Notes: generated by a model from the letters alone, not told the origin. A stretch of 64,000 bases of DNA from Eubacteriales bacterium (GCA_045653035.1 JAZOLO010000009.1:3277-67276), one strand, 5' to 3'; positions 3,964 through 26,367 are shown, counted from the first letter of the stretch. A program made the numbers and translations.

Positions 3964-4947
3964 TTACTTTGTAAAAACTATTGCACTCCAGTTGTCAAGA
4001 GTGTAGGTTTTGACGGTTTTGAAGCCTGCTTTTTCAACGGCAACACGAACCTCGTCCTCTCTTTCACTGATTATACCTGATGAAATGAGATATCCGCCCA
4101 CTTTAAGCTTTTCATAGAACATATCTGCCATCATAATTATAATTCCTGCTACAATATTTGCACATATAACGTCGTAGTCTTTGCCTATTTTATCGTATAG
4201 CTCTTTACTACCAAGCACGTCACCGTCGAATACCTGTACTCTGTTCTCACCGAAGCTGTTTTGCTCCATGTTTTCTTTTGCAATTCTTGCTGCAACTTCG
4301 TCTATATCTACCGCAACAGCATATTTGGCACCAAGCTTTAATGCAGCTATAGTGAGAATACCGCTTCCGCAGCCCATGTCAAGCACGTGCTCACCGCCGT
4401 GAATTATATCCTCAAGCTGTTCCATACAAAGCTTTGTTGTAGCATGTGAGCCTGTTCCGAAAGAGGAGGATGGGTCGATTTCGATAACCTCGCGTGCATT
4501 TTTCATATCATGAGGTAGTTCTTCCCACGTGGGCTTTACAACAAGCTTATTGCCCACAGGAAATGGCTTGAAATACTGACGCCAGTTATTTTCCCAGTCC
4601 TCATCCTTAACCTCGTCTCTTTCAAGGATGAGTGTTTTATAGCCATCGTTTTCATTTTTTAGCGTTTTAAGAGAGGAAAGCACGTTTGCGTATAAAGCTT
4701 CGCCTTCCTCGTCGGTGGAAAAGTACGCATATATTACAGGGGATTTTTCCTCATCTGAAAGAAGCTCATCGTCTATGTAGTCATAAAATATTTCACCTCC
4801 TGCAAGTGTCTCCTTTAAATCAGAAAGATCCTCAACAGTAAAGGTATCAACCCCGGATATAATGAGAAGGTTTGAGATTTCCTCAACAAAAAAGGGAGAA
4901 GGAAGCGTATTGTCGGATGTTGTGATTTTAAGTCTAGTCCAGATCAT
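3964..4947 (-). CDS. prmA: Ribosomal protein L11 methyltransferase PrmA
   Basis: DEDWENNWRQYFKP, IDPSSSFGTGSHATT, VLDMGCGSGIL. Start placed at ATG 4947 after an AAGGAG RBS. Confidence 0.95.
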   Translation of the reverse strand: MIWTRLKITTSDNTLPSPFFVEEISNLLIISGVDTFTVEDLSDLKETLAGGEIFYDYIDDELLSDEEKSPVIYAYFSTDEEGEALYANVLSSLKTLKNENDGYKTLILERDEVKDEDWENNWRQYFKPFPVGNKLVVKPTWEELPHDMKNAREVIEIDPSSSFGTGSHATTKLCMEQLEDIIHGGEHVLDMGCGSGILTIAALKLGAKYAVAVDIDEVAARIAKENMEQNSFGENRVQVFDGDVLGSKELYDKIGKDYDVICANIVAGIIIMMADMFYEKLKVGGYLISSGIISEREDEVRVAVEKAGFKTVKTYTLDNWSAIVFTK

Positions 4948-5020: not shown

Positions 5021-5431
5021 TTAAAGAATGTACTTATTAAGCTCCTGAGGGAAATCACTGATATCAATAGAAGCGGTAGTGACGAGATTTATTTCTCTTT
5101 GTGTTGCTACCTTATCAAGGGCGTTTATAAGCTTCACAAACTGCTCTTTGTTATTACCGCAAATCTTGAGCGAAGAGTCAATAAATATGTCCTTTATATC
5201 GTAGTTAGCGGAAATAATACCGCAAACCATTCCGTAAAGCTCATCAGCATTTGAGATGCCGAAAGCGTCTGTATCTACAAGTCGTACCTGGTGGCGTACG
5301 TCAAATATGAGCTTGTTGCCTTTCTCAATGCAAACTACGTTACCGGGAGAGGTTTCAACAGCCTTATTTGCCAGTTCAATAAGATGTTTTGTTTTGCCAC
5401 TGCCTTTGAGACCGATGATGATTCTAACCAT
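5021..5431 (-). CDS. Small P-loop protein (conserved clostridial hypothetical)
   Basis: IIIGLKGSGKTK Walker A and DIFIDS Walker-B-like motif; 136 aa. Confidence 0.7.
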   Translation of the reverse strand: MVRIIIGLKGSGKTKHLIELANKAVETSPGNVVCIEKGNKLIFDVRHQVRLVDTDAFGISNADELYGMVCGIISANYDIKDIFIDSSLKICGNNKEQFVKLINALDKVATQREINLVTTASIDISDFPQELNKYIL

Positions 5432-5542
5432 AAAAAATCCTTCCTTTCGTGGATGAAATTGAAGATCCTATCTTCTGTAATTATTGTATAACAAAAGTCT
5501 TGAAAAATCAATAGCTTTTTAACAATTTAACAAAAAATATAG

Positions 5543-6883
5543 CTAAAAATGATAATAAATATTTATTTTTCCCGATGATATAACTATTCTTTCCACGACA
5601 CTTCTTACAATAGCTCTTTTTTCACGCATTCCAAGAGTGTCCCACAAGTCGGAAACGCCTGTTATTTTCTCTTTATAATCCTCTCGTCTAGAGTTCTTTT
5701 TTTCTTTTTCAAGTAATATTTTCTCCTCATCTTTTGCCTTTTCAAGCTTTTTCTTTGTATCTTCTATTACCTTTATCAAAGCATCGTCTCCTTCAGACCA
5801 TAGGTCGTAAAGCTTTACGAGCTTTTTTTCAAGGCGGTCAGCTTTAGAAGTTCTGTCTTTTTGAATTTCCTTTTTGCTTGTTTCTCCTTCCAGCGACATC
5901 GAAAAAATATCGCGAAGAACAGCGTCCTCTACCTCGTCAGCCCAAATTTTTTCAGCCTTGCACAATGGGTCGTGAACAAGATAAGGCTTTGATGTTTGCT
6001 GAGAATAGCAAACAAGCTTATACCCCTTATTGCCCCATTTCTGATATCTCATTCTTGCACCGCATTCACCGCAGTATATAAGCCCTGCAAGAAGGTGAGG
6101 GGAGGAGTCGGATATCCCCCTCTTTCTTTTTTCAAATTCCACCATAGCACGCTCAAAGGTTTCTCTTGAAACAATGGGCTCATGCCCTCCCTCATATTCC
6201 TCTCCCTTGTATTGTATAACTCCGATATTCGTTTTTCTTTTGAGTATCTGTACTACAAGCTTTTCATATTTAAGACCCAACTCAAGGGCAATAGAGTTTG
6301 GAGAGTAGCCCGAAAGAAACATATCGTATATACGCCTTACTGTATCAGCGTCCTCGTTTGGTACAAGTATTCCCTTTACAGGGTCGTAGTCGTAACCAAA
6401 GGGAATTTTACCGCCACCCATCCATAGACCGCCCTTTACTCTTTCTCTCATACCCATTCGGGTCCTTATCTTTATGTTTTCACGTTCAAGCTGTGCAAAA
6501 GCGGAGATAATACCAAGCATAGCCCGTCCGATTGGCGTTGACGTATCCATGTTTTCCGTAAGCGATACAAAATCCACACTGTTCTTATTGAGTACGTCCT
6601 CAATAAGATACAGAGTATCCTTTTGACTTCTTGACAGTCTGTCAAGCTTATACACCGCAACGTGAGAGATTTTCCCGTCTTCAATATCTCTTATCAAAGC
6701 AGTGAGTGCGGGACGGTCAATATTGCTTCCGCTGTAACCGGGGTCAACGTAAAATTCAAAGGATGAAAATCCCTTTGATATACACCAGCCCTCAAGCATC
6801 TTTTTTTGAGCTTCAATAGAGTAGCCTTCCTCTGCCTGCCCCTCGGTGGACACCCTCACGTAAAGAGCCACCTTTTTATTCAT
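5543..6883 (-). CDS. Large serine recombinase (resolvase, recombinase and Zn-ribbon domains; SpoIVCA/SprA/phage-integrase class)
   Basis: ALYVRVSTEGQ catalytic Ser motif, KLDRLSRS, FAQLERENI, GGKIPFGY, HEPIVS, LAGLIYCGECG Zn ribbon, coiled coil. ATG 6883 follows GAGGTG. Confidence 0.93.
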   Translation of the reverse strand: MNKKVALYVRVSTEGQAEEGYSIEAQKKMLEGWCISKGFSSFEFYVDPGYSGSNIDRPALTALIRDIEDGKISHVAVYKLDRLSRSQKDTLYLIEDVLNKNSVDFVSLTENMDTSTPIGRAMLGIISAFAQLERENIKIRTRMGMRERVKGGLWMGGGKIPFGYDYDPVKGILVPNEDADTVRRIYDMFLSGYSPNSIALELGLKYEKLVVQILKRKTNIGVIQYKGEEYEGGHEPIVSRETFERAMVEFEKRKRGISDSSPHLLAGLIYCGECGARMRYQKWGNKGYKLVCYSQQTSKPYLVHDPLCKAEKIWADEVEDAVLRDIFSMSLEGETSKKEIQKDRTSKADRLEKKLVKLYDLWSEGDDALIKVIEDTKKKLEKAKDEEKILLEKEKKNSRREDYKEKITGVSDLWDTLGMREKRAIVRSVVERIVISSGKINIYYHF

Positions 6884-6930
6884 AGAAATCACCTCGGTTT
6901 AACTTTACCTCATTCTACTTATCAAAAAAT

Positions 6931-6960
6931 GTATAAAACGGTAGTAAAAGGCAAAAAATT
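6931..6960 (+). promoter_or_regulatory. Putative SigF/SigG-type (forespore) promoter for the small ORF
   Basis: GTATA-N15-GCAAAAAATT against the recalled SigF consensus GYATA-N15-GGnrAnAnTw (1 mismatch). Confidence 0.4.
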
Positions 6961-6976
6961 ACGTGAGGTGAAAATA

Positions 6977-7084
6977 ATGAAGATAGAAAGATATATAAAC
7001 GGTCAAAAAGCCACTAAAGAAGAGGTTTCAAAAAAGAAGATAAAGATAAAAAATTACGTTCAGCTTGTTAAAAACTTCAAATAA
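6977..7084 (+). CDS. Small basic protein (35 aa) divergent from the recombinase; candidate recombination directionality factor
   Basis: GAGGTG RBS 6 nt before ATG 6977; MKIERYINGQKATKEEVSKKKIKIKNYVQLVKNFK. The function is inference only. Confidence 0.55.
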   Translation: MKIERYINGQKATKEEVSKKKIKIKNYVQLVKNFK

Positions 7085-8421
7085 TTTGTACGCTTAGCTT
7101 CTCTGAAATCCTCATACGGATCGAAATATTCACTTTTCTTTACAGGCACGTCCCCCGGCATAAAGCCTAGTGACATTACTCCGTATCTTAATGCGTCTGG
7201 AGCGTGAGTCAGCTCATGAGGCTCGCCCGATACGTCCTCGGGAACTCTTTCATCAAATGTGAGCCTCGGAAGCGTTCTGATAATGTTAAGACAATTTTCA
7301 AATATAACGAGCTTAGGTATTCCTTCTTCATCGCATCTTAAAAGCTCTCTTATCATTCTCCAGCCTGCAATTCGTGAATTGTTTGCCGCAAGAACTCCTG
7401 AAAGTCCGTTTGACGAAAGAATATCAAAACCTGTTTTACCGCTGTCCTGCCGTCTGCCTCCAAGGTCGGGACTGGCAACTGTCCAGCGTATTTTTTCTTT
7501 GCCTGTCATAGAAGAAATTTCACGTGCCGCATCACTCAGTATTAAATTGGAGCGGTAAAGCTCGCGGTATACGTATATTCTTTTTCTGTCGGGAGGATAT
7601 GCAAACCATAATGAGGCTGTCATATCAAGACCGTAGTCAAAAGCGATAAACCTATTCCAATCCTCTGGAATTTCAAAAGGACGGCACACGTTCTTTTCTC
7701 TTGAGAATTCGGGGAAATACTGTCCCTCAAAGACATCCCAGTCACCGTATAGCATAGCCTTTCGTCTGATGGGGGGCAATGCCTCAAGAGTCCTTACGTA
7801 TTCGGGGTTCTTTGATATTATGTAATCGTTGTCGTATACGGTAGACGGTACAAAGGTATAATCCTCGGCCCTTTCTCCGCTTATGTACTTTTTGTCTATA
7901 AAAAGCCTTTTTACCCATTCGTGTCCTACGCCCCCTGGGTTACAGGTAAAATACATTCTGGGGGTAAAATTCTGAACGTTTCCCGAAAGTCTGTTCGACT
8001 CGGTGAGTGCAACGTACTGCATGTAGGTAAACTGTGTTGCCTCCTCCATTCCTATTACTTCATACGCCTGTCCCTGATACTGAAGAATATCCGACTCACT
8101 CTGACAGTAACCAAGCTTTATTCTGCTTGAATTTTTGAATATAAATTCTTTTGTTGACTCTTTGTAGGTCGCAATTTTATTGAGGGCCTTTTGTAGGGGG
8201 ATTATATGGTTTTCGCGAAGCTCGGGAAAGGTCCGCCTTAAAAGAAGAATTTGTATACCTCTGTGAGACAGTGCAAGCAGAATAAACTTTGTTCTCATAG
8301 CCCAGCTTTTTCCTCCGCCTCTCGCACCGCCGTAGGCTATACGTGTAGTATTTGCGCGGAAAAATTCCTCTTGTTTGGGGTAGGGCTTAATACCTGCTAA
8401 ATAGCGCTCAACCCTCGTCAT
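7060..8421 (-). CDS. terL: Phage terminase large subunit
   Basis: YGGARGGGKS Walker A, IGMEEATQF Walker B, TCNPGG coupling motif, nuclease motifs FIAFDYG and HAPDALRY. ATG 8421 lies 1 nt after the upstream stop. Confidence 0.92.
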   Translation of the reverse strand: MTRVERYLAGIKPYPKQEEFFRANTTRIAYGGARGGGKSWAMRTKFILLALSHRGIQILLLRRTFPELRENHIIPLQKALNKIATYKESTKEFIFKNSSRIKLGYCQSESDILQYQGQAYEVIGMEEATQFTYMQYVALTESNRLSGNVQNFTPRMYFTCNPGGVGHEWVKRLFIDKKYISGERAEDYTFVPSTVYDNDYIISKNPEYVRTLEALPPIRRKAMLYGDWDVFEGQYFPEFSREKNVCRPFEIPEDWNRFIAFDYGLDMTASLWFAYPPDRKRIYVYRELYRSNLILSDAAREISSMTGKEKIRWTVASPDLGGRRQDSGKTGFDILSSNGLSGVLAANNSRIAGWRMIRELLRCDEEGIPKLVIFENCLNIIRTLPRLTFDERVPEDVSGEPHELTHAPDALRYGVMSLGFMPGDVPVKKSEYFDPYEDFREAKRTNYLKFLTS

Positions 8422-8422
8422 G

Positions 8423-8842
8423 CTACACCGTCCATTTCTCAAAAGCCTCTGGCAGAGTATAGTCCCCGTCGTCTGCTTCTGCACCTGCAGCATCATTCCA
8501 TCTGTCGAAATTCACTGCAAGAAATAGCTTAACGCCCGAAAAAGCCTCTTTTGAAAAGAGCCTTTCCTCTGCATACTCTTCGATTCTCATAACAGACATT
8601 TTAAGGAATCTATTTATTTCTGGGTCTTCAAACTTGAAAAGCTCCTCACGGCTTTCCACACCCACCGCAAGGGCAAGTCCAGTCACTGTGTAGGGCAGTA
8701 AAACCTTTTTAATAATTTCTCCTTTTTCATCAGTCAATAGATTTCCGTTTTTGTCCTGAACAGGTGCAAGACGTGAGCGGAAATACTCCTCTACACGCTT
8801 TTTTACTTCATTAAAATTTTTTGGTGCTTTTTTATAATTCAT
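8423..8842 (-). CDS. terS: Putative terminase small subunit (gp3-like DNA-packaging protein)
   Basis: 139 aa directly upstream of terL and translationally coupled to it; PYTVTGLALAVG..SREEL, RIEEYAEERLF, GVKLFLAVNF resemble gp3-type TerS. AAAGGAG RBS. Confidence 0.75.
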   Translation of the reverse strand: MNYKKAPKNFNEVKKRVEEYFRSRLAPVQDKNGNLLTDEKGEIIKKVLLPYTVTGLALAVGVESREELFKFEDPEINRFLKMSVMRIEEYAEERLFSKEAFSGVKLFLAVNFDRWNDAAGAEADDGDYTLPEAFEKWTV

Positions 8843-8863
8843 TTCACCACTCCTTTCAATACC

Positions 8864-8908
8864 ATTATATACTGACATGGACTGCCATACAATGACATAT
8901 ATATGACA
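8864..8908 (-). promoter_or_regulatory. Activator-dependent, late-type promoter of terS
   Basis: TATAAT at 8869-8864, preceded by four TG(T/G)CA repeats (plus-strand starts 8873, 8883, 8893, 8904); no canonical -35 at 17 bp. Confidence 0.6.
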
Positions 8909-8917
8909 ACTTTTAGT

Positions 8918-9022
8918 GTTTGTCTTTGGCAAACGTGATATTTGTACTAACATACAAGTGATATTGCTTCGCAGTGATATTTTCACTTTGTGCAAGTGAT
9001 ATTTTCAAACTTCGTTTGAAAG
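8918..9022. repeat. Multi-hairpin repeat with four GTGATATT units
   Basis: GTGATATT at 8935, 8958, 8974 and 8996, each followed by a short hairpin (e.g. TGC-ttc-GCA, TTTCAAAC-ttc-GTTTGAAA). Confidence 0.7.
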
Positions 9023-9062
9023 TTTCGGAAAATTTTACTAGAGCAAAGTTAAATTTAATTGT

Positions 9063-9113: not shown

Positions 9114-10418
9114 TTATTCAGACTTGCCGAGAAGCTTGAACATGTTCTTCTTGTAAACCTCAACGCCGGGCTGGTCGAAGGGATTAACACCGCCGATATA
9201 ACCTGAAAGAGCACATGCAAGCTCGAAGAAGTAAACCATGTATCCAAAGTTTTCCTCATCCATCTTGTCCAATTCAAGCACAACGTTGGGAACACCGCCC
9301 GAAACGTGAGCATCAAGTGTGCCGAGAAGTGCCTGCTTGTTAATGTAGTGGAAGTCTCGGTCTGCAAGGAAATTGAGGTTATCAATGTTTGATGCATCGA
9401 AAGGCACCTTAACCTCATGATTTGAATTAAGCACGTCAATAACAGTTTCAAAGATAATTCTTCTGCCGTCCTGAAGATACTGCCCCATACTGTGGAGGTC
9501 TGTAGAATAAATTACAGCGGCAGGGAAGAGACCCTTCTTATCCTTGCCCTCGCTTTCGCCGAAGAGCTGCTTGAGCCATTCGTTCATATACATCAAAGAA
9601 GGCTTGTAGGAAACGAACATTTCTATCTCGAAGCCCTTTCTAACAAGAAGATTACGGATAGCAGCATATTTGTAGCAATCGTTCTTTTCGATATCTGTTG
9701 GTGCGAAATCACGCATAGCCTTTTCAGCACCCGACATCATTGCCTTGATATCACAGCCTGCAACTGCAATGGGAAGAAGACCAACAGCAGAAAGCACACT
9801 GTATCTTCCGCCGATATCGTCTGGTACAACAAATGTCTCGTATCCCTTTTCAATAGCAAAATGCTTAAGCTTGCCAGGTACGTCCTTTTTATCTGTTGTA
9901 ACGAATATTCTTTCTCTTGCACCTTCCTCACCGTACTTCTTTTCAAGAAGCTCACGGAAAATTCTGAAAGCTGCCGCAGGTTCGGTAGTTGAGCCCGACT
10001 TTGATATAACGTTTATGGAAATATCCTTACCTTCACAGATTTCAAGAAGCTCGTGAAGAGCATCGGGGTCAATAGTATTACCTGCAAAATATACGTCGGG
10101 AGTATCCTTCTTCTTAGCGTTGTAATAAGAACCCTTAATGAATTCTATCGCTGCCCTTGCTCCGAGATATGAACCACCGATACCTATAGAGATGAAAATT
10201 TGACTATTCTTTTTGATTTTTTCGGATACCTTTAAGATTTTGTGAAATTCTTCCTTGTCAAAATCTACAGGGAGTGTCATCCAACCGATAGGCTTTTCTA
10301 AAGGAGAACCTTTCTTTATAAGCTCCTCGTGAGCAGCAAGAACATTTCCCTGAATAAGGTGGTATTCATGTTGGTTTATGAAACCTTTAAGAAAATTTGT
10401 GTTGAGTTTTATAGCCAT
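9114..10418 (-). CDS. pgi: Glucose-6-phosphate isomerase
   Basis: IGIGGSYLG, ISKSGSTTE, GGRYSV, QLFGESEGK, DLHSMGQ, NPFDQPGVE. Confidence 0.97.
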   Translation of the reverse strand: MAIKLNTNFLKGFINQHEYHLIQGNVLAAHEELIKKGSPLEKPIGWMTLPVDFDKEEFHKILKVSEKIKKNSQIFISIGIGGSYLGARAAIEFIKGSYYNAKKKDTPDVYFAGNTIDPDALHELLEICEGKDISINVISKSGSTTEPAAAFRIFRELLEKKYGEEGARERIFVTTDKKDVPGKLKHFAIEKGYETFVVPDDIGGRYSVLSAVGLLPIAVAGCDIKAMMSGAEKAMRDFAPTDIEKNDCYKYAAIRNLLVRKGFEIEMFVSYKPSLMYMNEWLKQLFGESEGKDKKGLFPAAVIYSTDLHSMGQYLQDGRRIIFETVIDVLNSNHEVKVPFDASNIDNLNFLADRDFHYINKQALLGTLDAHVSGGVPNVVLELDKMDEENFGYMVYFFELACALSGYIGGVNPFDQPGVEVYKKNMFKLLGKSE

Positions 10419-12661: not shown

Positions 12662-15600
12662 TTACGGAGCTCTTAACTTAACTTTTTCGTTGTTCTCGGG
12701 CATATAAACATTAGGAGCAATCCATGAGTCGGGGTTTTCAATTACGTTGTCGTAATCAGTTAGGCCTATCATAACCTTTGCTCTGAGAGGTGCACCAGTT
12801 GTACTTATTCCTCCGTAGGTGAAGGTGTAATCACCTGTAGGTACTGTCACAGAGCCTGTGAAATTAGTTATTTCTTCTGTGTATTTCTGTTTAGTAACTT
12901 TAGTACCATCGTCACCGGTATAATCCTTATAATAATTTATATATGCCTTATTTTCGTCAGGATAATACTCAATATACTCACCTGATTTAAGAGTTACGTT
13001 GAATGTTATTGTATTAGAGCCTATTGTCACAGATGGATTCTGTGCAGGGGTGTCAATTGCTGAACAAACTCTGATATCGTCCATTGTTACACCGCTGACA
13101 TCACCGGTTGTAGAGATAGTAACGTACTTTGAAGTTTCAAGCTTAAACTCATTACGGAAGGTAGCATAGTCGGTAGAGTTATCTGACTTAATGTTTGAGA
13201 ATGAATACCCGTCAAAATCAGCGTTATCGCTATCCATAAGGATGATATCACGCTCACCCGTAAAGTTAAGAGGAATAAAGTAATCTATTCTGTTATTCTG
13301 ATTTACTTTTCCGCCAGAGGTAAGGGTGATAAGAATAGCACCTGTTTCAGAACCGTTACCCTTTACATTTACCTTAAGTACTGGCTTTGATAAAAGCTTA
13401 GTTCCTGTTGTAATCTCAAAGTTTTTTTGATTGTTTTCAAGCGTCGAAAGAACAAGCTTTTCACTAAAGTCAAGTAGTATCTCTTCATTATTACCGTCAG
13501 TAGAATATCTCTGCTCTATTCTGATGAAAGGCTTCTGTGCTCTAAATTGGTTATTACCATTTCCTGTAGCAAATGTGCCGTCTGCCATATCTCTTATAAT
13601 ATTAGCATCGTAATACATTTCGCGGAACGCCCAAGAACCATCGGCCTGCTTAAATATCTTGTATTCCTTGCCTGCTTCAATTCCAACTTTAAGCGCTTCC
13701 TTTACGTCTTCTGAAAAGTAGCCCCCCTCACGTAGTCTTGAATAGGTATTGAAGTAAGTGTAGTTGTCAATGAGTTCAAAGAAATGTTTGAAGTTTGAAA
13801 GGGAGAAGGGCTGAAGAACAGTTGACATATCGTATGCAACTCCCATTACACCGAGTAGGTCAATATCGTCGCGGAAAAGGGTCTTGTTGTAGGTGTTAAT
13901 GTATGTATTACCGCTGCCGGGAGCAAAGTTGAACCATCCGGAGGTAGCTGTAAGATAATCTTTGAAATGGTTCTTGTTTGAATTCAAATGTCCACGATTA
14001 TACTTCTTGTATTGACGGTTGGCATGGTCAACCGCACCTGCCTTACCTCTTGCAGACCAGAAGGATACAGGGAATCTCGAACCTTCCATCATGGGAATCT
14101 TGGAATAATTGCCGTACATCTCATAGCTTGCCTCATATGCTGCTTCGAGCACTGCACGGATAAATTCGGCATAGTAATAGTCTCTGAGGTCTGGGTCACC
14201 GAAAAATTCAATGGACTCGAAGCCGTCGAGGTAAATCATGTCGAATCCGCCTTCAACGCAAGCACGACCTGTAAGATATGCAACGTAATAGTAAAGCTCA
14301 GAGCCAACAATTGGCTGAAGACCGCCGTAGTAGGAGAGGAGCTGTCTGATTTTGCTGTTTTTGTCATGTGCTGTTGCTGTTGTTCCGCACTGTGCACGGC
14401 TAACGGTAAGTGTGCCGTTTGTTGCACTGTAGGATGTAACTAACATGATTTCTTCGTCTACGAGAATATAACCGGAGTAGACATCATTAGCAGATGTACC
14501 AGCAGTTGCACCGCTTTTGTAGAACGTTCTTCCTTCAAGACTTTCGTTAACGTACAATAGTGAAGTTGTAGAAGTTATGTTGTTAGTAAGAGTTAGTACG
14601 TCTTCAGGATAATATTCAATCTGCTGCTGCCACTTGGGCACAGATAGAATTGTTGAAGCCGCAGGAAAAATAAGTGAAGAATAGGTGTGCATACTGAGAA
14701 GAACACCCTCTGCGTTAAGTTTGTCTGCTATTCTTTCTTTGAAGGTAGATGCAGGAATAAAGTCTGTTTCACCTGAGAGTCTCGCTGAAACAAAGTTGAA
14801 GTCACCTTGAATAAAAGAGTTGCTACCCCGATGGAAGTCGATGATTTCAATGGAGTTTGCCTTTGCAACCTGACCTGTTTCGGTAGCGTTAGAAGGGGAG
14901 AGACCGCTACTCTGAATTACATAGTCATAGAATAGGGCATCGTTTTCAGCATCATAGGCGAAAGGAGCCCCCTTTGTTGATGTGATACCTTCCCTGATGT
15001 CGATTGCAAGAACAATTTCCTTGAGGTATTCTCTGTGTTCACCTGTTTTAAGTCCGCCATACTGGGAAAAGGTAATGCCGATTTTAGCACCTATAACGTC
15101 ACCCATCTTAGAAAGAACTCGTCCGATGGTTTTCTTGTAGCTTCCGCCCGGACGGTTGATGGGGTCAGTTGAGGTAGTCATAGGTACTGCTGAAATCCTA
15201 TAAGTGTTATAGTCTGTTTCTGAGAACTCACAGTTAACAGAAATCTGTGCATAATCAAGGTATGCTACGTTGTGAGGAATCTCGGAGTCAAGTTTTACTG
15301 TGAAATAGTTTGGGAAGGCTTCAACAAGGAAGTAAGCCTCGGTATCGTTGGAGAATACTATGTGAAGTCTTCCGTCAACAACGTCAGCATAAATGGGCTC
15401 GAAATAAGCACCCGAGCTGTTTGTAACGCTAGCAAACCAAGGATTCAGTGTTGTTGACAAAACGTTTTCGGTGTTATCTTTATTTATAACTTCGTAAAGA
15501 CGTCCCTTGTTCTTTGAAATAGTAACCTTAACGTGGTCTGTTTCAATGTAGATGAACTCGTCATCTTCTGTTAGACCAGAAGTGTTGTCAATATGTGCAA

Positions 15601-17233
15601 GAGTTTTAACGTTGTCGTTTGATGCAATAAGCACTTGATACTCAGCCCAGTGTCCTTCAATGTCAGGGAACACATTGTCAAGAGTTTCTTTAACTACCGT
15701 GTGTTCATTTGCAGTAAGGTTTATAAGACGGTTTATCATGGTAACAGCTTCCGCTCTTGAAACCTTTGCATCGGGACGGAATGTGCCGTCTGGGTATCCG
15801 TTGATAGTACCTAGCTCTGCAAGATAAGAGATAGCAGGATAATACTTGTAAGTATCCTTAAGGTCGATGAAATTGCTCTTGGATGATTTCTTAACAAATT
15901 TTGCCGCACCGTAGATAAGCTGTGCAAGCTCACCTCTGGTTATATCATCATCGGGATAAAGCTTTCCGCCGTCAAGATAATCGAAAGCCTTGTTATACTC
16001 AAGGAAAGCTACGGCATCGTGATACCACGCATCAACCGTAACATCAGGAATTTTTGAATAGTAGCCACTGGGTAAGGTAAAGCCGTCAAGGGCGAGTCTT
16101 GAAAGAAGAGCTGCAGCTTCAGCCTTTGTAATATTTTCGTCGGGACGGAATGTGCCGTCAGCATATCCCTCAATATATGCTGTGTTAGCACCGTTATACT
16201 GAAGTGCAATAACCATAGCATCATTATTCCAAACAGTGTTATAAGCGGCGGATATGAAGTTTACGGTAAAGCAGGTATTAGTTTTACCTGTTCCCTTAAA
16301 CTGAACGTCTTCTGGAAGGTCACCATAAGGGTAAATTTCAAATCCTACTACCCAACCTGTAGCATTAGGGAAAGCTGACTTTATGGTAGCTGTATGTCTT
16401 GTTCTGTTAGCTTCATTAGTATATGTTGCCATATCTGTCCAGGCATGTGCCGTAACGTTGCCGGTTTCATTCATGGTATAAAGAACAAGCTTTGTTTTAA
16501 GAGGAGCACCCGAAGGGGAGTATGGAATCAAAGATCCCTGTCTTACGCTTACGTCAAATGTTATGTTCTGAAGTTCTTCAATGGGAAGAATTTCATGTGA
16601 CTCGTATGCATAACGGTAAAAAATGCTCTCTACTTCTTCTTCTGCCTGTAATCTGTACTGATTGTTAAGAGGACCGTTTACTGTATCGCCTTTAAGCACG
16701 GCGTCATCAAGAATACTTTTAGAAAGTGAACCCGATATATGAGAGTCCGTTGACATGTAGAGAGGGGTTCCGTTTGGATTAACGTGGAAGGTGTATGGAT
16801 GGGTCCACGTACCTGCAATCCAAGAAGAGGTATACTCTTCTTGAGTATAAACGGCATTTTTACCATGTCCCTTGTAACCTACATCGGAGCGCTCAAGACC
16901 GTCTTCGCCCATCACGTAGAAGAATTTTTTTTCATTATTGAGCTGTTTAAGTCTCACACATATAATGCCGTTTTGTGTAAAAACAGTATTAGAAGTAATT
17001 GTAGTGAAGGTGTTATTATCAAGATTTATTTTGTTTACGGTAAGACCGGCATTATAGTTTTCAAGTGTCACGTAGGTATATTCAGATGCGGTAGATAGAT
17101 TAAGACCTACAAGCTTACCGTTTTCCAAGGTAATGTCGTCAAAAAAACCTGCTGACATTACGGGCAGTGAAAGCAAAACGGCTATAATTATGGTAAGAAA
17201 GAATATGCCAAGCTTTGTTTTGATTTTCTCCAT
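12662..17233 (-). CDS. Secreted SLH-domain protein (1523 aa) with a C-terminal putative glycoside-hydrolase-like module
   Basis: Signal peptide; SLH repeats (GYADGTFRPDENITKAEAA, GYPDGTFRPDAKVSRAEAV); C-terminal ~950 aa paralogous to 17773-22365. Confidence 0.8.
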   Translation of the reverse strand: MEKIKTKLGIFFLTIIIAVLLSLPVMSAGFFDDITLENGKLVGLNLSTASEYTYVTLENYNAGLTVNKINLDNNTFTTITSNTVFTQNGIICVRLKQLNNEKKFFYVMGEDGLERSDVGYKGHGKNAVYTQEEYTSSWIAGTWTHPYTFHVNPNGTPLYMSTDSHISGSLSKSILDDAVLKGDTVNGPLNNQYRLQAEEEVESIFYRYAYESHEILPIEELQNITFDVSVRQGSLIPYSPSGAPLKTKLVLYTMNETGNVTAHAWTDMATYTNEANRTRHTATIKSAFPNATGWVVGFEIYPYGDLPEDVQFKGTGKTNTCFTVNFISAAYNTVWNNDAMVIALQYNGANTAYIEGYADGTFRPDENITKAEAAALLSRLALDGFTLPSGYYSKIPDVTVDAWYHDAVAFLEYNKAFDYLDGGKLYPDDDITRGELAQLIYGAAKFVKKSSKSNFIDLKDTYKYYPAISYLAELGTINGYPDGTFRPDAKVSRAEAVTMINRLINLTANEHTVVKETLDNVFPDIEGHWAEYQVLIASNDNVKTLAHIDNTSGLTEDDEFIYIETDHVKVTISKNKGRLYEVINKDNTENVLSTTLNPWFASVTNSSGAYFEPIYADVVDGRLHIVFSNDTEAYFLVEAFPNYFTVKLDSEIPHNVAYLDYAQISVNCEFSETDYNTYRISAVPMTTSTDPINRPGGSYKKTIGRVLSKMGDVIGAKIGITFSQYGGLKTGEHREYLKEIVLAIDIREGITSTKGAPFAYDAENDALFYDYVIQSSGLSPSNATETGQVAKANSIEIIDFHRGSNSFIQGDFNFVSARLSGETDFIPASTFKERIADKLNAEGVLLSMHTYSSLIFPAASTILSVPKWQQQIEYYPEDVLTLTNNITSTTSLLYVNESLEGRTFYKSGATAGTSANDVYSGYILVDEEIMLVTSYSATNGTLTVSRAQCGTTATAHDKNSKIRQLLSYYGGLQPIVGSELYYYVAYLTGRACVEGGFDMIYLDGFESIEFFGDPDLRDYYYAEFIRAVLEAAYEASYEMYGNYSKIPMMEGSRFPVSFWSARGKAGAVDHANRQYKKYNRGHLNSNKNHFKDYLTATSGWFNFAPGSGNTYINTYNKTLFRDDIDLLGVMGVAYDMSTVLQPFSLSNFKHFFELIDNYTYFNTYSRLREGGYFSEDVKEALKVGIEAGKEYKIFKQADGSWAFREMYYDANIIRDMADGTFATGNGNNQFRAQKPFIRIEQRYSTDGNNEEILLDFSEKLVLSTLENNQKNFEITTGTKLLSKPVLKVNVKGNGSETGAILITLTSGGKVNQNNRIDYFIPLNFTGERDIILMDSDNADFDGYSFSNIKSDNSTDYATFRNEFKLETSKYVTISTTGDVSGVTMDDIRVCSAIDTPAQNPSVTIGSNTITFNVTLKSGEYIEYYPDENKAYINYYKDYTGDDGTKVTKQKYTEEITNFTGSVTVPTGDYTFTYGGISTTGAPLRAKVMIGLTDYDNVIENPDSWIAPNVYMPENNEKVKLRAP

Positions 17234-17772: not shown

Positions 17773-20700
17773 TTATTTTATGATAACATCGAGTGATGCA
17801 CCGCCCATGTCAACTTCAGGTGCTACCCAATCAGCAGGGTTAGCAATTACGGCGCCTGAGAAGCCAAGCTTAACCTGTGCACGAAGTGTTGTACCAGTTA
17901 TAGATTCAGCATTATAAGTGTAGGAGAAGGTACCTGCAGGAGCAGTTACGCTGCCTGTGTAGGTTATTTCCTTGGTATGTGCTACTGAGCCTGTCCACTT
18001 GCCAGTTTTTTCGTCGTAGATGTTGTCATAGTAGTTGAGGTAAGCCTTGCCTGTTTCGGGATAGAACTCGATGAATTCACCTGAGTGAATCTCGGTGTTG
18101 AAGGTAATAGTGTTTCCGCCAATTGTAACACTGGGGTTCTTAGCAGGAGCATCAACTGCTGTGTAAGCCTTGATATCGTCTATCTTAACACCTGTAGTAT
18201 CACCTGCAACACCTATCTGTACCTCGTTTATACTCGAACGAGTGGGGTTAGCACGGTAGGTTTCGTAGATGTTGTATGCGTAGTTAAGGTTGCTGAATTT
18301 TGGGCCGGGGTGATCTGCGTTGTCAGCGTCGATGAGTATGAACTCTCTCCATCCTGTATGTGAGGTAGGAATGTAGTAGTCGGTACGTCCCTTTTCAGTT
18401 GATGTAGGTGAGGTAATGGAAATCATTACACCGCCGGTAGAGCTTCCGTTACCGAAAACGTTAACCTTGAATGCATAGTGCTTGGAAAGGTCAACAGGGG
18501 TTGAAAGAGACTTCTTACCTGTGAGAGTTGAAACTTCCTTTGTTTCATCTATATCAAGTAAGAGAACTTCGTTTTCAGAGTTTGTAGAGTATCTTTGCTC
18601 TATTCTGATGAAAGGTGTCTGTGCTGCAAAGGGGTTAGTGCCTTCGCCTGTTACAAAGAGCCTATCTGTCATATCAAATATCCTGTTGTAGATATATGAC
18701 ATTTCACGAAATGCATAAGTACCGTCAGCCTGCTTAAATACCTTGTATTCATATTTGCCGTCGCGTATCTGTGCCTTAACGTCTTCAGCAAAGTAACCCG
18801 CCTTACGAAGTCTTGAGTAAACACTGTAGTACATGAAGTTATCAGAGTGTCTTGTCGAGGATTCGTTTAAAAGCTCTGCAAAGTTGTTGTCAACGTTAGA
18901 GAAGTCGTTAGCGATAGCTATTGAACCCATGTGGTCAAGGTCATCGTGGAACATTGTCTTGTAGATAGTGTTCTTATACTCTTGGTTGCCATCTGGATCA
19001 AAGTTGAACCAACCGAGAATCGCTGTATAGAAAAGCTCGTTCTTTCTGGTTATATTTGCACTGTAGTGACCTATTGTATGAGCCTTGATAGCCTTTGTAG
19101 CAGAGTCGGTAGCACCTACTCGTCCTCTTGCGGGCCAATTAGTTCTGACGCCTGCGGAGTCTTCCATGATAGGAGTCTTTATACACTGAGAAAGAACTCT
19201 GCGATAGAATTCAGAATAGTAGTAATACTGGTGTTCAGCGGGAACAAATTTTATGAATGACTCGAGACCGTCAAGGTAGATGCAGTCGAAGTCACCTTCG
19301 TTGTAAGCCTTTGCTGTAAGGTCAGCTATGTGCCAAAAGAGATCGGAGCCTGCTTTGGGCTGGAATCCACCGTAGTAGCCCTGAAGCTGACGAATAACTG
19401 CACCGTCCGAGTGACGTGCGGGTGTTGTACCGAACATACCTCTCTTACAGTTGAGTAAGCCAGAGGAAGAACCATACTGAACATAAATGATTTCCTCGTC
19501 TATAAGAATGTAGCTTGAATCGCGTGTACCGCTGTACGGGATACCGTTACCACTGAATGCTGAAGCATCCTCGTATGTCTTTACATTTGTACGTGTCTTT
19601 GTAAGGTCACCGCGAAGAGTGTAGGTTGTTTCATTAAACTCGAAATCCTGCTGCCACTTGGGGTCTGACAAAATCGAAGTAGCCTCGCTTTTTACGAGAG
19701 AAGAATAGGTGTGAAGACCTATCTGAAGACCTGCGGCATGTGCAAGGTCAGAAATTCTTTCTTTGAATACAGAGCCGGGGATGAAGGTTCCCTCTTGTTT
19801 TTCAGACTCTGTTCTTGCAGAAATAAAGTTGAAGTCACCCTGTACGAAGATACTACCCTGATGTAAGTCTAACTGGTCAACTGAATACTTCTTTGCTGTA
19901 TCTATAATGTTATTGATGTTTGACAAATCAAAGTTGTTAGTGATGATTGCGTAGTCCTTGAAGAGGTCCTTGTTTTCTTCATCGTATGTGAAGGGGCCTC
20001 CACGTGTGGACATTATACCCTTTGAAGGATCTACTGCAAGAACTAGCTCCTTCATGATTTCCATATGCTCTTCCAAAAGAGTGAAAGCGATACCAACCTT
20101 AACACCCATAGTGTCAAAGCCGATAGTTGTGAGTGTATAAGCACCTACGAGAGAGGTATAGCCTCCGGGTACGGCGAGCTGATTTGCTCTTGTATCCATA
20201 AGGAGGTTTGATGCTCTAAATGTGCCAGGCTCTTCGGATGCGGTATAGTCGAAGTCGATTCTACCGAATGTGAGCTTGGAGAGAGCCTTTGAAATGTTGG
20301 AGTCAAGTTCTACTGTGAAGTAGTTGTCTTTAACGTCAACAATAAAGTAAGCCTCGTATCCGCCCTTAAAGGTGAACTTAAGTCTTCCGTCAACAAGCTC
20401 AAGCTTTGTAGGCTCGAAAAGAGCGCCTGATGCAGTATTAGCAAAAGCAAACCAAGGCTGAGAGTTTGTTGCAAGAACGTTCTTACCTGTGGGAAGGTAA
20501 ATAACGGAATCTACCTTACCGGTCTTCTTGTTAAGTGCAACTTTTATGTGCTTGTTTTGGAATGTAATGGCAGTTGATGTTTCAGTAAATACGTTGGGGT
20601 CAATATTGTAGAAGGAAACACTGTGAACGTTATTATTTGAAGCCATGAGTATCTGATACTCTGCCCAGTGACCTTCAATATCGCTGAATATGTTAGTAAG

Positions 20701-22365
20701 GTGCTCCTTGCTTACAGTATCCTTTGTTGCAAGAAGCGAGAGCATTCTGTTGATAACTGTAACAACCTCAGCTCTTGTGATTGTGGCATCGGGCTTAAAT
20801 GTACCGTCAGCATAACCGTTTACAAGACCTGCAGCTGCACCTGCAACAATTGCGTCATAGTATTTATGAGTTTCTGGAACGTCGGTGAACTTAATGGTTT
20901 CGGTTGCAACAAGGTTGGAAGCAAAGTATGCAAGTTCAACGAATTCAGCTCTTGTTATGGGCTGGTCTGGGAAGTACTTGTCAGAATCATTTGTAAAGTA
21001 GAAACCGTTAGCGTCAAGGTATGCGATGGCATCGTACGCCCAGTGACCTTCAACGTCGGTAAACTTTGTGGTGTTACCTGTGGGAATATCCTGAGTACCT
21101 GCAAGAAGCCTTGCGAAAATAGTGGATGCTTCGGCCTTTGTCATATTGTTGTTGGGCAAGAAAAGATTGCCTGCATAACCGTTGATATAAGCCTTATTTG
21201 CACCATTAGCCTGTGCGGGTGCCTTGGGAAGAAGAGTTACTGGGTCGGGATCGGGAAGGTCTGAAAGATTGAGTTTTACAACAACCTTAGATTCTTCTAT
21301 GTATGCACCAATCTTATTTTCATAGGGGACAGCATATCTGAGGTCAAGAGCACTCTCAGCTTCGGAAAACTTTGCAAGAACAGGAAATGCACCTGAAATG
21401 CTGTATCCGTTAACAAGGTTAGCAAGCACGGAAGCTGTTTCGTAGCCTCTGGCGTTTTTAAACTTGGTTACAACAATGTCTTTACCGGGCTCAGCATTAG
21501 CTGACATTATCATAACGATATTGTCAAACTGAGAAATTGCATAGTTCCATATCTGCTCGCCGTCGAAAGGCTTACCTTTCAATGCCATATTAGTGGTCAA
21601 GGTGGAGTTACCCTTTACAGGAGCGTTGGTGTATGTGTAAACTGTAGGGTCGAACTGTGTAAACATAGCACCGTTCTTGTCAACGAATGATGTCGTAAAT
21701 ACAAACGCTCTCTTGTCGGTGTGTGTAGCGTTAGTGGTCTTGAACCAGTCGAGTACTGCAATCTGAGGATATGCTTCGAGGTTATAAACCACGTACTTTG
21801 TATTACCTTGCTTTACAATAACAGCGAAGTTGTTGTTATCATAGCTGTCGATAACAATATCAGGGGAGCCACCGGTGTAATCCTCTGTTCCAAAATGATT
21901 TGCAACGAAATTGTTACGAACAAGACCCTGTCCGTAGTAGTCGCTCAGATGAAGAGATATACCGTAAGGAACGTTCACTTCTGTGAGAAGGGAAGCAAAA
22001 TTCTTAAGAGTGGTATACTCTTTGATCATTTCCTTGTCGGCATCGTTTTTTGCAATAACGTTGTCAACATTTTTACCGGAATTGCTGTAAAGGTGTTTTG
22101 AGCCGGAAGAAATATTTCCGATAAATCCTACGTACTTAATGTTGTACTTGTTTGCATAGTCAACGAGCCAGTAGCAAGCATCCTCAAGGGGATCGGTATT
22201 AACCAAATCACCTAAGAAGGGCTTTATGCCGTTGAAACTTGCAAGTACAATTTCATCATCAGCTACGTAGTCATCTTCAAAGGGGACGTATCCTGCAACA
22301 GATACAGCCGAAAGAAGAATTGTAATAGCGAGGATAGATAAAATGGTTGCGAGTAATTTTTTCAT
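17773..22365 (-). CDS. Secreted SLH-domain protein (1530 aa) with a degenerate metallophosphoesterase-like N-domain and a putative glycoside-hydrolase-like C-module
   Basis: Signal peptide; SLH repeats (GYADGTFKPDATITRAEVV); shared blocks QGDFNF.SAR, D.IYLDG.ES, GWFNF.P, PFIRIEQRYST. Confidence 0.8.
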   Translation of the reverse strand: MKKLLATILSILAITILLSAVSVAGYVPFEDDYVADDEIVLASFNGIKPFLGDLVNTDPLEDACYWLVDYANKYNIKYVGFIGNISSGSKHLYSNSGKNVDNVIAKNDADKEMIKEYTTLKNFASLLTEVNVPYGISLHLSDYYGQGLVRNNFVANHFGTEDYTGGSPDIVIDSYDNNNFAVIVKQGNTKYVVYNLEAYPQIAVLDWFKTTNATHTDKRAFVFTTSFVDKNGAMFTQFDPTVYTYTNAPVKGNSTLTTNMALKGKPFDGEQIWNYAISQFDNIVMIMSANAEPGKDIVVTKFKNARGYETASVLANLVNGYSISGAFPVLAKFSEAESALDLRYAVPYENKIGAYIEESKVVVKLNLSDLPDPDPVTLLPKAPAQANGANKAYINGYAGNLFLPNNNMTKAEASTIFARLLAGTQDIPTGNTTKFTDVEGHWAYDAIAYLDANGFYFTNDSDKYFPDQPITRAEFVELAYFASNLVATETIKFTDVPETHKYYDAIVAGAAAGLVNGYADGTFKPDATITRAEVVTVINRMLSLLATKDTVSKEHLTNIFSDIEGHWAEYQILMASNNNVHSVSFYNIDPNVFTETSTAITFQNKHIKVALNKKTGKVDSVIYLPTGKNVLATNSQPWFAFANTASGALFEPTKLELVDGRLKFTFKGGYEAYFIVDVKDNYFTVELDSNISKALSKLTFGRIDFDYTASEEPGTFRASNLLMDTRANQLAVPGGYTSLVGAYTLTTIGFDTMGVKVGIAFTLLEEHMEIMKELVLAVDPSKGIMSTRGGPFTYDEENKDLFKDYAIITNNFDLSNINNIIDTAKKYSVDQLDLHQGSIFVQGDFNFISARTESEKQEGTFIPGSVFKERISDLAHAAGLQIGLHTYSSLVKSEATSILSDPKWQQDFEFNETTYTLRGDLTKTRTNVKTYEDASAFSGNGIPYSGTRDSSYILIDEEIIYVQYGSSSGLLNCKRGMFGTTPARHSDGAVIRQLQGYYGGFQPKAGSDLFWHIADLTAKAYNEGDFDCIYLDGLESFIKFVPAEHQYYYYSEFYRRVLSQCIKTPIMEDSAGVRTNWPARGRVGATDSATKAIKAHTIGHYSANITRKNELFYTAILGWFNFDPDGNQEYKNTIYKTMFHDDLDHMGSIAIANDFSNVDNNFAELLNESSTRHSDNFMYYSVYSRLRKAGYFAEDVKAQIRDGKYEYKVFKQADGTYAFREMSYIYNRIFDMTDRLFVTGEGTNPFAAQTPFIRIEQRYSTNSENEVLLLDIDETKEVSTLTGKKSLSTPVDLSKHYAFKVNVFGNGSSTGGVMISITSPTSTEKGRTDYYIPTSHTGWREFILIDADNADHPGPKFSNLNYAYNIYETYRANPTRSSINEVQIGVAGDTTGVKIDDIKAYTAVDAPAKNPSVTIGGNTITFNTEIHSGEFIEFYPETGKAYLNYYDNIYDEKTGKWTGSVAHTKEITYTGSVTAPAGTFSYTYNAESITGTTLRAQVKLGFSGAVIANPADWVAPEVDMGGASLDVIIK

Positions 22366-25782: not shown

Positions 25783-25809
25783 TAACTGCGTTTTCAACAA
25801 TCGACGTTC

Positions 25810-26367
25810 ATGCCAATGATAATCGGTGAAATAAGAAGATACCTTCGAGACAACAACATGATAAGGGTAAGCCGTTCTGTAAGAGATATAGCATATAAAG
25901 CACTATCAGCAAAGGAAAAGCTCAATTCAATACTATCAAGAGAACCAACCCTTGAAGAACTGACAAACGAGGTTAACAGACGTGCCGTTCTTGAGGCAGA
26001 GGAAAAAAAACGTGTTGAGGGGATTGATATACCACCTGTAGTTTATACTGAAAAGATGATATCCAATGCTCTTGATGCTGTGGTAGCACCCGTATCACTT
26101 TTTGAACCTGTGTACTCCGACAACGGTGATTCGATTTTTATAATGGACCAGCTATGCGACAATAAAAACAACGATGGCGTGTGGACTGAGAGTATCGCAA
26201 TATCCGAGGCTATGAAAAAGCTTTCTGAGAGGAAAAGTAAAATAATAAATATGCGTTTCTTTATGGAGAATACTCAGATGGAGGTAGCGGAAGAAGTAGG
26301 CATAAGTCAGGCACAGGTATCCCGTCTTGAAAAGGGAGCGCTTGAGCAAATAAAGAAAAATATATAA
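25810..26367 (+). pseudogene. sigG: 3' half of sporulation sigma factor SigG (regions 2.4 to 4 only; split or truncated gene)
   Basis: PMIIGEIRRYLRDNN.IRVSRS.RDIAYKAL, PVSLFEPVY.D.GD.I..MDQ and TQMEVAEE.GISQAQVSRLEK match SigG rather than SigF. In-frame TAA at 25783-25785, no RBS, ~100 N-terminal residues absent. Confidence 0.85.

Follow-up and report, generated by a model that had tools for sequence, protein, structure and literature searches.

Introduction

Gene transfer agents (GTAs) of the RcGTA type, found in Alphaproteobacteria, consist of domesticated and vertically inherited phage genes for heads and packaging, which are distributed over several loci and respond to a dedicated activator. 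Until the description of FpGTA in 2026, GTAs were to our knowledge considered a rarity beyond the Alphaproteobacteria. This agent of Faecalibacterium prausnitzii is encoded by two operons and forms 40-nm particles containing ca. 9 kb of DNA, and fragments of 4.6-8.9 kb have been reported for FpGTA-like particles (Nat Commun 2026;17:2046, PMC12946183). In sporulating bacteria, intervening elements that split sporulation genes have been described, e.g., in B. subtilis and C. difficile the skin element of sigK, with SpoIVCA, and also SPbeta, which splits spsM and has SprA/SprB (bioRxiv 10.1101/2022.02.25.481979). Here we deal with a locus of a Eubacteriales bacterium that can be compared with both. 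It lies in a stretch of 64,000 nucleotides (GCA_045653035.1 JAZOLO010000009.1:3277-67276), the whole of which is called the window below, and comprises, at positions 5,543 to 8,908, the small and large terminase genes terS and terL, a large serine recombinase gene and an open reading frame (ORF) of 35 amino acids (aa).

We hold it to be probable that two independent domesticated modules meet here, with terS and terL belonging to a dispersed particle system of the GTA type and the recombinase and the 35-aa ORF to a system that splits the sporulation gene sigG. In what follows G000 is this genome (an assembly of 1.18 Mb, 85% complete), C designates a contig of that assembly, and the other G numbers are related genomes that were compared.

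Terminase genes and their inheritance

The gene order on the minus strand is pgi, terS, terL, recombinase, a P-loop ORF, prmA and rsmE, with the 35-aa ORF on the plus strand. The first gene of the pair, terS (8423..8842, minus strand, 139 aa), codes for a small terminase with a weak match to P22 gp3, and terL (7060..8421, minus strand, 453 aa) for a large terminase with ATPase and nuclease domains. The first-pass annotation, made from the window alone, had described an orphan DNA-packaging motor and a recombinase, both intact, between pgi and a conserved block with prmA, and had noticed no other phage genes. This description holds well. The four genes are present and intact, they are located between pgi and the P-loop gene with prmA beyond it, and the 43 further ORFs of the window matched housekeeping and sporulation families only in Pfam, with no phage structural gene. 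Two details had to be corrected. The genes terS and terL, which had been described as translationally coupled, are without overlap, with one base between the stop of the former and the start of the latter; and the 35-aa ORF that had been listed after terL does exist, but on the plus strand, convergent with terL and divergent from the recombinase.

TerL matched Terminase_3 (9.7e-14), Terminase_6N (1.7e-9) and phrog_979 (9.7e-46). The motifs that had been read from the sequence are there: the Walker A stretch G31-S39, E127 and the three aspartates D262, D319 and D409 were invariant in 14 of 14 aligned homologues, and we take these aspartates to be the nuclease site. The protein has the N-terminal ATPase with Walker A/B and the C-terminal RNase H-like nuclease by which large terminases are recognized. 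Its fold model (predicted local distance difference test, pLDDT, 77.7) matched the full-length terminases of D6E (E 3e-19) and Sf6 (E 4e-14), and compared with the nuclease domain of P22 it gave a template-modelling (TM) score of 0.68, whereas a search of PDB sequences with TerL gave no match at E<=0.01. For terS the match to phrog_606 was at E 1.3e-3, and the five best Foldseek matches of its model (pLDDT 79.8) were all P22 gp3 chains (3p9a, E 0.02-0.07), and 18 columns are invariant in 15 sequences of the family. Among cultured phages the identity of TerL does not exceed 38%, several of the closest being marine Roseobacter and Pelagibacter phages. The best "phage" match (52%) came from MT836592.1, a 9.6-kb scaffold of a human faecal virome in which terS (of helix-turn-helix type), terL, portal, scaffold, capsid and a virion protein are contiguous. 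Rather than the genome of a phage, this scaffold may be a piece of host DNA that was packaged; its length equals the FpGTA fragment size.

Among 41 related genomes, 33 have homologues of TerL, including every one of the 15 of the genus and of the 24 of the family, and the order pgi-terS-terL-recombinase-P-loop gene-prmA is kept in the seven genus loci examined (7/7). Congruence of TerL with the species tree together with a low ratio of nonsynonymous to synonymous substitution rates (dN/dS) had been proposed as a sign of domestication, and both were found. With glutamine synthetase III as the species marker, the identities to G000 of TerL and of the marker were 94/94, 87/84, 84/85, 81/82 and 70/72%, the two trees have the same main clades within the genus, and the pairwise distances correlate with r=0.953 (78 pairs, slope 1.08, within genus). 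Against the nearest species, G014, dN/dS was 0.049 for terS, 0.021 for terL and 0.046 for the recombinase, and 0.003-0.095 for six housekeeping neighbours, values that are rough because dS is near saturation (0.8-1.4) even for this closest pair. By these comparisons of sequence the terminase pair is vertically inherited under purifying selection and is not decaying. In five other genera of the family (5/5) the pair is likewise isolated within housekeeping DNA, the site differing from genus to genus, and in two of them an unrelated gene separates terS from terL. A few relatives have in-frame stops (one TAA in TerL of G026:C31, one TGA in the portal gene of G016 and G023), which could mean that some lineages are losing the system, or that there are errors in the sequence.

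Particle genes elsewhere in the genome

A search for dispersed structural genes had been recommended with the original description, and it was successful. In a PHROG search of the whole assembly, a portal (phrog_156) and a major head protein (phrog_267) were found on C16, while terL is on C9, and in G007, G022 and G017 the portal and head genes are likewise on a contig other than that of terL. The C16 genes form an operon at 63.6-71.3 kb, comprising genes for a 66-aa membrane protein and the portal (of P22/SU10 type), for proteins of 139 aa, 579 aa (a virion protein) and 160 aa (scaffold-like), for the major capsid protein, and for a glycine-rich fibre, an M15 peptidase and a protein of 301 aa. 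On its flanks are a GntR/ABC pair and a giant GH94 gene. A search of the ESM Atlas assigned the capsid protein to the P22-type capsid family; it gave no host taxa useful for a link to Faecalibacterium. A restriction-modification set of the DpnII type (two methylases and an endonuclease, G000:C16:57720-60426) is located ca. 3.3 kb upstream of the portal operon. Further loci of the particle system code for a 509-aa protein (C12) and for RepA_N-domain proteins (C10 and C15). The loci on C16, C12, C10 and C15 contain head, fibre, peptidase and DNA-binding genes only, and no genes for replication, lysogeny or integration.

Of the 24 family genomes, 23 have the portal gene (57-96% identity), and the one in which it was missed is 68% complete. 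The identity of the portal declines across the family as that of TerL does. Outside the family, terL, portal, scaffold and capsid are contiguous in G031, G033 and G040, and in other Clostridia a portal match followed TerL in 45 of 80 loci, within the DNA examined. Relatives of TerL are also present in metagenome-assembled genomes labelled Ruminococcaceae, Oscillospiraceae and Christensenellaceae.

GTAs are recognized by phage-derived structural and packaging genes that lack replication, lysogeny and integration functions of their own, and that are inherited vertically under purifying selection in the host lineage; both properties are found here. GTAs are in addition defined by particles that carry random pieces of host DNA, too short to code for the whole system, and such particles are predicted here. 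In the reading that we favour, TerS-TerL would package DNA for a particle system derived from a podovirus (of P22 type), the genes of which lie at five or more chromosomal loci. Capsids would be built from the products of C16 and C12, TerS-TerL would fill them with DNA, and the M15 peptidase and the membrane protein would open the cell, so that particle formation, packaging of host DNA and lysis are what this gene content predicts. Of the three roles that had been suggested for an orphan motor, that of a part of a split GTA-like system is thus the one to be preferred, given its vertical inheritance, the purifying selection and the presence, at another place in the genome, of matching portal and capsid genes that share its promoter element.

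A promoter element common to five loci

The element in question has 52 nt and lies upstream of terS (8862..8913, minus strand). It is made of four TGTCA/TGGCA direct repeats with a spacing of 10-11 bp, directly followed by a -10 box. There are exactly five such sites in the assembly (0-4 mismatches in 52), none with 5-12 mismatches, and none in a shuffled genome. They precede terS, the operon of the membrane protein and the portal, the 509-aa gene of C12 and the two RepA_N genes, which encode paralogous proteins of 115 and 116 aa consisting of the RepA_N DNA-binding domain only (C10, C15). In five congeners the core motif had 5, 6, 4, 6 and 10 matches, against 0, 1, 2, 0 and 1 for the reversed control, and it was found upstream of terS, of the portal operon and of the 509-aa homologue in all five (5/5), each congener having a motif variant of its own that is common to all its sites. 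In two other genera TGTCA-N5-TGTCA with a -10 box lies upstream of both loci.

The architecture suggests that the four phased TGTCA-type repeats could stand in for a -35 box and that a single activator could fire the five loci together, as an activator-dependent regulon. The RepA_N-like proteins are the prime candidate regulators, because the repeats are iteron-like and proteins with nothing but the RepA_N domain are themselves under the same element. Directly downstream of the C15 gene there is a tandem array of ca. seven copies of an AT-rich unit of ca. 15 nt (G000:C15 about 16300-16450), and similar short repeats follow the C10 paralogue (G000:C10 about 5530-5640); these repeats could be binding sites.

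The copies within a genome share genome-specific changes, e.g., TGTCAT to TGGCAT in G003, a pattern suggestive of concerted evolution, or of recombination between copies of the promoter. In G008 (the genome with ten motif copies) and G003, several contigs end exactly in the same promoter-repeat variant. Upstream of the shared element, the window has four direct AATATCAC repeats and a small palindrome (8950-9030, minus strand). They were considered as a conserved feature and rejected, being private to this genome and not kept in congeners; at this position G014 has a 683-bp spacer with other tandem repeats.

The recombinase and the split sigG gene

The recombinase (5543..6883, minus strand, 446 aa) contains the Resolvase, Recombinase and Zn_ribbon_recom domains, matches phrog_95 at 1e-121 and has a serine, S12, that is invariant in 13 of 13 sequences. 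By its sequence it is a large serine recombinase, with a resolvase domain carrying the nucleophile serine, a recombinase domain and a zinc ribbon/coiled coil. An orthologue adjoins terL in all 15 congeners. None was found in the nine other family genomes at E<=1e-30, and 11 of 251 genomes of the order have one at E<=1e-110. In seven other genomes the orthologue sits at or near a fragment of sigG and is accompanied by no terminase; it adjoins the 3' half of sigG in five of them and the 5' half in G183, and lies 2.7 kb away in G025.

The presence of the recombinase predicts the state of sigG. Full-length sigG was found in none of 23 recombinase-bearing genomes (both halves in 21, one half in two) and in 26 of 28 recombinase-free genomes, the other two being cut by contig ends. 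For this reason, and because the orthologues are recombinases of sigG-intervening elements, we no longer regard the gene as a member of a packaging cassette, as had been proposed at first. Another target, sigK (TIGR02846), was considered and rejected; no split sigK was found, and the partial sigma match turned out to be the 5' half of sigG.

In G000 the 5' piece of sigG is a 100-aa ORF on C8 that ends in ...FSTYAVPM followed by four foreign codons, and the continuation (...PMIIGEIRRYLRDN...) is the 185-aa ORF at 25810..26367 of the window (plus strand), with homology from 25792. Residues 1-96 of the intact SigG of G022 align to G000:C8:3731-4018 and residues 90-268 to the window ORF; the flanks of the intact gene in G022 are not syntenic with either half here. 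The 3' half covers positions 88-254 of TIGR02850, and the two halves sum to ca. 365 bits on this model, compared with 343-440 bits for intact genes. The break, after codon ca. 96 (...AVPM), falls within a conserved segment of the sigma factor, which is continuous in the 26 full-length genes. A Shine-Dalgarno sequence is present before the 5' half, while none precedes the 3' half. Both halves evolve under purifying selection, with dN/dS of 0-0.135 (5') and 0.04-0.07 (3').

Both junctions share a 9-nt core. The 5' junction is at G000:C8 about 4020-4050, and the attR-like junction of the window (25791..25835, plus strand) consists of the element-side arm, the core and the start of the 3' half. 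On the non-sigG side of each junction there is one arm of an inverted repeat, made up of an outer block of TTTTCAAC type and an inner one of GTTCA type. Judged by eye from the aligned junctions, arms and core are conserved in six of six genus genomes, and the sequence further out diverges. A shared core with inverted-repeat arms is the attL/attR pattern of serine integrases. A sporulation gene split at one precise site, with such a core and such arms, is what characterizes skin-type elements, and the sigG split has these features. Beyond the 5' junction (G000:C8:4115-6332) there are two genes for proteins of unknown function, a P-loop protein gene and a RelE/antitoxin pair, accessory genes that may be leftover cargo of the original intervening element, and an XerD-like tyrosine recombinase is encoded at C8:232-1104.

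Canonical elements are found in G257, G222 and G161, where the 5' half, a 6-7-kb element, the recombinase and the 3' half follow one another in direct order. In G257 the whole arrangement is on a single contig, with a 6.8-kb element, the recombinase 30 bp upstream of the 3' half, spoIIGA-sigE upstream, and arms that form a perfect 21-nt inverted repeat of the same type. The recombinase is at the element's edge adjoining the 3' half in these three genomes and in G244 and G138, but not in this genome, in which it is 19 kb away from the 3' half (26 kb in G001) and on the opposite strand, with pgi, glutamine synthetase and two giant genes for SLH proteins in between. The order in G183 (C84:70953-72616) departs from the canonical one, in that the 5' half directly adjoins the 3' end of the recombinase gene and the two are oppositely oriented, which may show that the element can sit inverted.

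The 35-aa ORF (6977..7084, plus strand), held in the 176-bp spacer between terL and the recombinase on the strand opposite to both, is a putative small partner of the recombinase and a candidate directionality factor. The ORF and its ribosome-binding site are conserved in eight of eight genus loci. In G025, G244 and G183 the recombinase is directly preceded, on the same strand, by a small ORF whose N-terminus is similar; in this genus the ORF is flipped. A complex model of the C-terminal part of the recombinase with the 35-aa product scored 0.69, a value reached by 58 of 80 solved complexes and by two of 110 mismatched pairs, while the best of three controls scored 0.00. The runs share at least 63% of the contacts, the partner pLDDT is at least 66, and the modelled contact is between the conserved N-terminal strand of the small protein and recombinase residues 438-446 (the last) and 313-333. 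The model supports, but does not show, that the 35-aa protein binds the recombinase.

The recombinase and the 35-aa ORF would then be the enzyme and the small partner of the sigG-splitting system, with recombination between the two junctions rebuilding sigG; such a recombination, its timing and the cell in which it would take place are predictions. Rejoining would have to be a chromosome-scale inversion or a large excision, because the halves are on different contigs and have housekeeping genes on both inner sides. If the halves were in direct order, the DNA between them would amount to no less than 127 kb (G001) or 167 kb (G000), including prmA, pgi and other housekeeping genes. In Bacillus and Clostridium sigG acts in the forespore, the germ-line cell, and for this reason a throw-away excision would not be viable. 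From the germ-line target and the lethality of such an excision it follows that the mechanism would differ from that of skin, the options being inversion, or excision followed by reintegration.

We can therefore put forward, tentatively and as a possibility well short of probable, that an unlinked, host-owned recombinase and its 35-aa partner rebuild a germ-line sigG whose halves are more than 100 kb apart, by a reversible inversion or by an excise-reintegrate cycle across spore dormancy, amounting to a heritable switch of chromosome architecture that would gate sporulation. As an extension of the same idea, the neighbouring particle system might fire in the same terminal sporulating cells, the lysing mother cell releasing DNA-filled particles along with the spore.

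Relation of the two modules and alternative explanations

In five other genera of the family (5/5) pgi, the P-loop gene and prmA are directly adjacent, and the four genes are hence an insertion at the base of the genus. The modules are nevertheless separable, since G025 has the recombinase and a split sigG, with no portal and a TerL match at E 1.3e-4 only, and the family's other genera carry the particle genes and lack the recombinase, so that each module would work on its own. Their common insertion may be a historical accident or a trace of shuffling driven by the recombinase. A functional link, e.g., both modules being active in terminal sporulating cells, is speculation.

For the terminase pair there are two alternatives to a role in a particle system. 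The one put forward with the original description as its possible refutation is that terS, terL and the integrase are the decaying rest of a single phage recently lost by deletion. All three genes are certainly of phage type, and the closest phage integrases are 40-47% identical to the recombinase. However, all 15 congeners (15/15) have the block at this site, and neither the seven genus loci nor the five other genera examined show it within a prophage. Its dN/dS (0.02-0.05) is like that of the housekeeping neighbours, and the TerL tree follows the species marker, so that a remnant is refuted by the criteria of the first-pass annotation and highly improbable. The other alternative is that the pair acts without capsids of its own, either hijacking the capsids of a helper phage in the way of a satellite or serving as a phage-triggered defence nuclease, two roles that the first-pass annotation had also offered. 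The physical isolation of terS and terL among housekeeping genes and the preserved nuclease residues of TerL would be in keeping with this. Yet portal (in 23 of the 24 family genomes), capsid, fibre and peptidase genes are co-conserved under the same 52-nt element, and in related lineages these genes are contiguous with terL. Loading of helper-phage capsids is disfavoured because the genome has capsid genes of its own that share the promoter element, and a defence nuclease is disfavoured by the PADLOC scan of TerS, TerL and the recombinase, which gave matches to no family. Overall we consider a capsid-independent function to be very unlikely, if somewhat less so than a phage remnant.

A different pair of alternatives concerns the recombinase. 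It could be an inactive relic, with sigG dead or functioning in two pieces and the correlation stemming from a single old insertion, nothing being rejoined at all. Points in favour of a relic are that no joined form was seen, that the recombinase gene is not linked to its sites, and the very great distance between the halves. Against it stand the conservation of the recombinase, the partner ORF, both halves and both arms across a genus in which synonymous sites are saturated, a 3' half without a ribosome-binding site of its own, a break inside a conserved sigma segment that the 26 full-length genes have intact, and the large sporulation gene set that the genome keeps; we find a relic unlikely. 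We give about the same small chance to a mobile cassette, in which promoter, terS, terL, small ORF and recombinase would be a 3.7-kb integrative element, inserted by the recombinase between pgi and the P-loop gene and kept since it serves the cassette. The single insertion block at the base of the genus and the different site of terS-terL in every genus fit such an element, and it would be small enough to travel in particles whose reported fragments are of 4.6-8.9 kb (PMC12946183). But there are no att-like repeats at the borders of the block, where we found only AT-rich chance pairs and the terminator hairpin of pgi, and in G001 a mere ca. 10 bp separate the pgi terminator from the promoter repeats. 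The conserved sites of the recombinase are at sigG and not at the block, inheritance within the genus is strictly vertical, and the orthologues of the seven other genomes, at or near a sigG fragment, come without a terminase.

The interpretation of the locus as two independent domesticated modules has to be weighed against a number of points, to which the roughness of the dN/dS values must be added. What is shown of the particle system is its gene content and dispersal, the common promoter element, the vertical descent and the purifying selection, while joint regulation, particles, packaged host DNA and lysis are predicted. The match of terS to Pfam GP3_package (E 2.2e-5, 25.0 bits) is under the 29.4-bit cut-off, and extending the ORF to 190 aa gave E 3.9e-5. 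No clear tail adaptor, nozzle or holin family was found among the proteins of the particle system, and its 509-aa, 139-aa and 301-aa proteins matched no family. Since the assembly is 85% complete, further loci of the system may exist, and the genomes compared are related to one another and hence not independent samples. The likeness to FpGTA is one of gene kinds and description. As to sigG, the halves are on different contigs in all 14 genus genomes in which both were found; neither a joined sigG nor a reciprocal junction was seen among the recombinase-bearing genomes compared; and a one-way excision of more than 100 kb with pgi, prmA and glutamine synthetase would be lethal to the descendants. 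Finally, with terS, terL, the small ORF and the recombinase in one insertion block, a historical link between the modules is possible. In three gut-metagenome runs of one study, in which 0.12, 0.06 and 0.00 of the sequence words were present as short contigs, no contig bridged or skipped the cassette or the sigG junction.

Other features of the window

On the terS side the cassette is flanked by pgi (9114-10418, minus strand), from which terS is separated by a spacer of 271 bp. On the other side there is the P-loop ORF (5021-5431, minus strand, 136 aa), with prmA beyond it. Its product has a Walker A motif at residues 8-15 and no family above threshold, a scan with PADLOC giving weak AAA matches only. 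It is more conserved than its neighbours (94-95% identity vs. 72-89% for prmA, and 59-67% in other genera), and its position between pgi and prmA is constant. We considered it as a member of the cassette and rejected this, as it sits between the same two genes in the five genera (5/5) without the insertion.

The two giant SLH-domain surface proteins (1523 and 1530 aa; 12662-17233 and 17773-22365, minus strand) are encoded between glutamine synthetase and the 3' half of sigG, and in G007 and G009 related SLH genes are inserted at differing points around the cassette. Housekeeping and sporulation genes of the window, as identified with Pfam, include spoIVA, spoIIGA-sigE, the spoIIIA operon, gerA and comEC.

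Comparison with known systems

If the reading that we prefer is right, a whole family of small-genome gut Clostridia keeps a GTA-type system in at least five pieces, with a single promoter element as the bond between them. Its repeats, together with the RepA_N-like proteins, would provide a direct handle on the switch of particle production, and there would be a sequence signature with which to find further loci. In the literature searched, FpGTA is the subject of the sole GTA paper for these taxa, and no sigG-intervening element was found (subscription journals and supplements lie outside the coverage of the search). The intervening elements of sporulation genes found in this literature all interrupt mother-cell genes, and the excised DNA is disposable. 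A genus-wide split of sigG with a detached recombinase and housekeeping DNA between the halves could not work as a disposable excision, and points instead to a reversible, large-scale rearrangement of the germ line. More generally, adjacent phage-type genes need not be one unit.

Among GTAs, the similarity to FpGTA, as described in its report, is considerable (PMC12946183). In both cases the host is a gut member of the Clostridia and there is more than one chromosomal locus; both have a gene set of podovirus type, with TerL, portal, scaffold, major capsid protein and a TerS in which no DNA-binding domain is obvious; and in both the fibre and lysis genes are elsewhere and the structural loci are devoid of replication and integration genes. 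The difference is one of arrangement, since in FpGTA terS and terL are contiguous with portal and capsid in operon I (ca. 10 kb), whereas here they form a separate locus of a system with at least five. In addition, neither a promoter element common to the loci nor regulators like the RepA_N candidates figure in the text of that report, which mentions no promoter, regulator, recombinase or integrase.

The particle system also resembles RcGTA in having domesticated phage genes in several loci that would be switched on together. RcGTA, however, is siphovirus-like, of HK97 type and of an unrelated lineage, and its regulators GafA and CtrA are unrelated to the RepA_N-like proteins.

The sigG system, for its part, has much in common with skin and SPbeta (bioRxiv 10.1101/2022.02.25.481979). 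All have a sporulation gene split at a precise site, a large serine recombinase with a small partner, and attL/attR sites with a common core and inverted-repeat arms, and in the relatives G257, G222 and G161 the recombinase is also at the element's edge, by the 3' half. Compared with these examples, the target here is sigG, a forespore gene and not a mother-cell gene. The recombinase is 19-26 kb away from its site and on the opposite strand, with the small ORF flipped, and the halves, if in direct order, are at least 127 kb (G001) or at least 167 kb (G000) apart with housekeeping genes between them.

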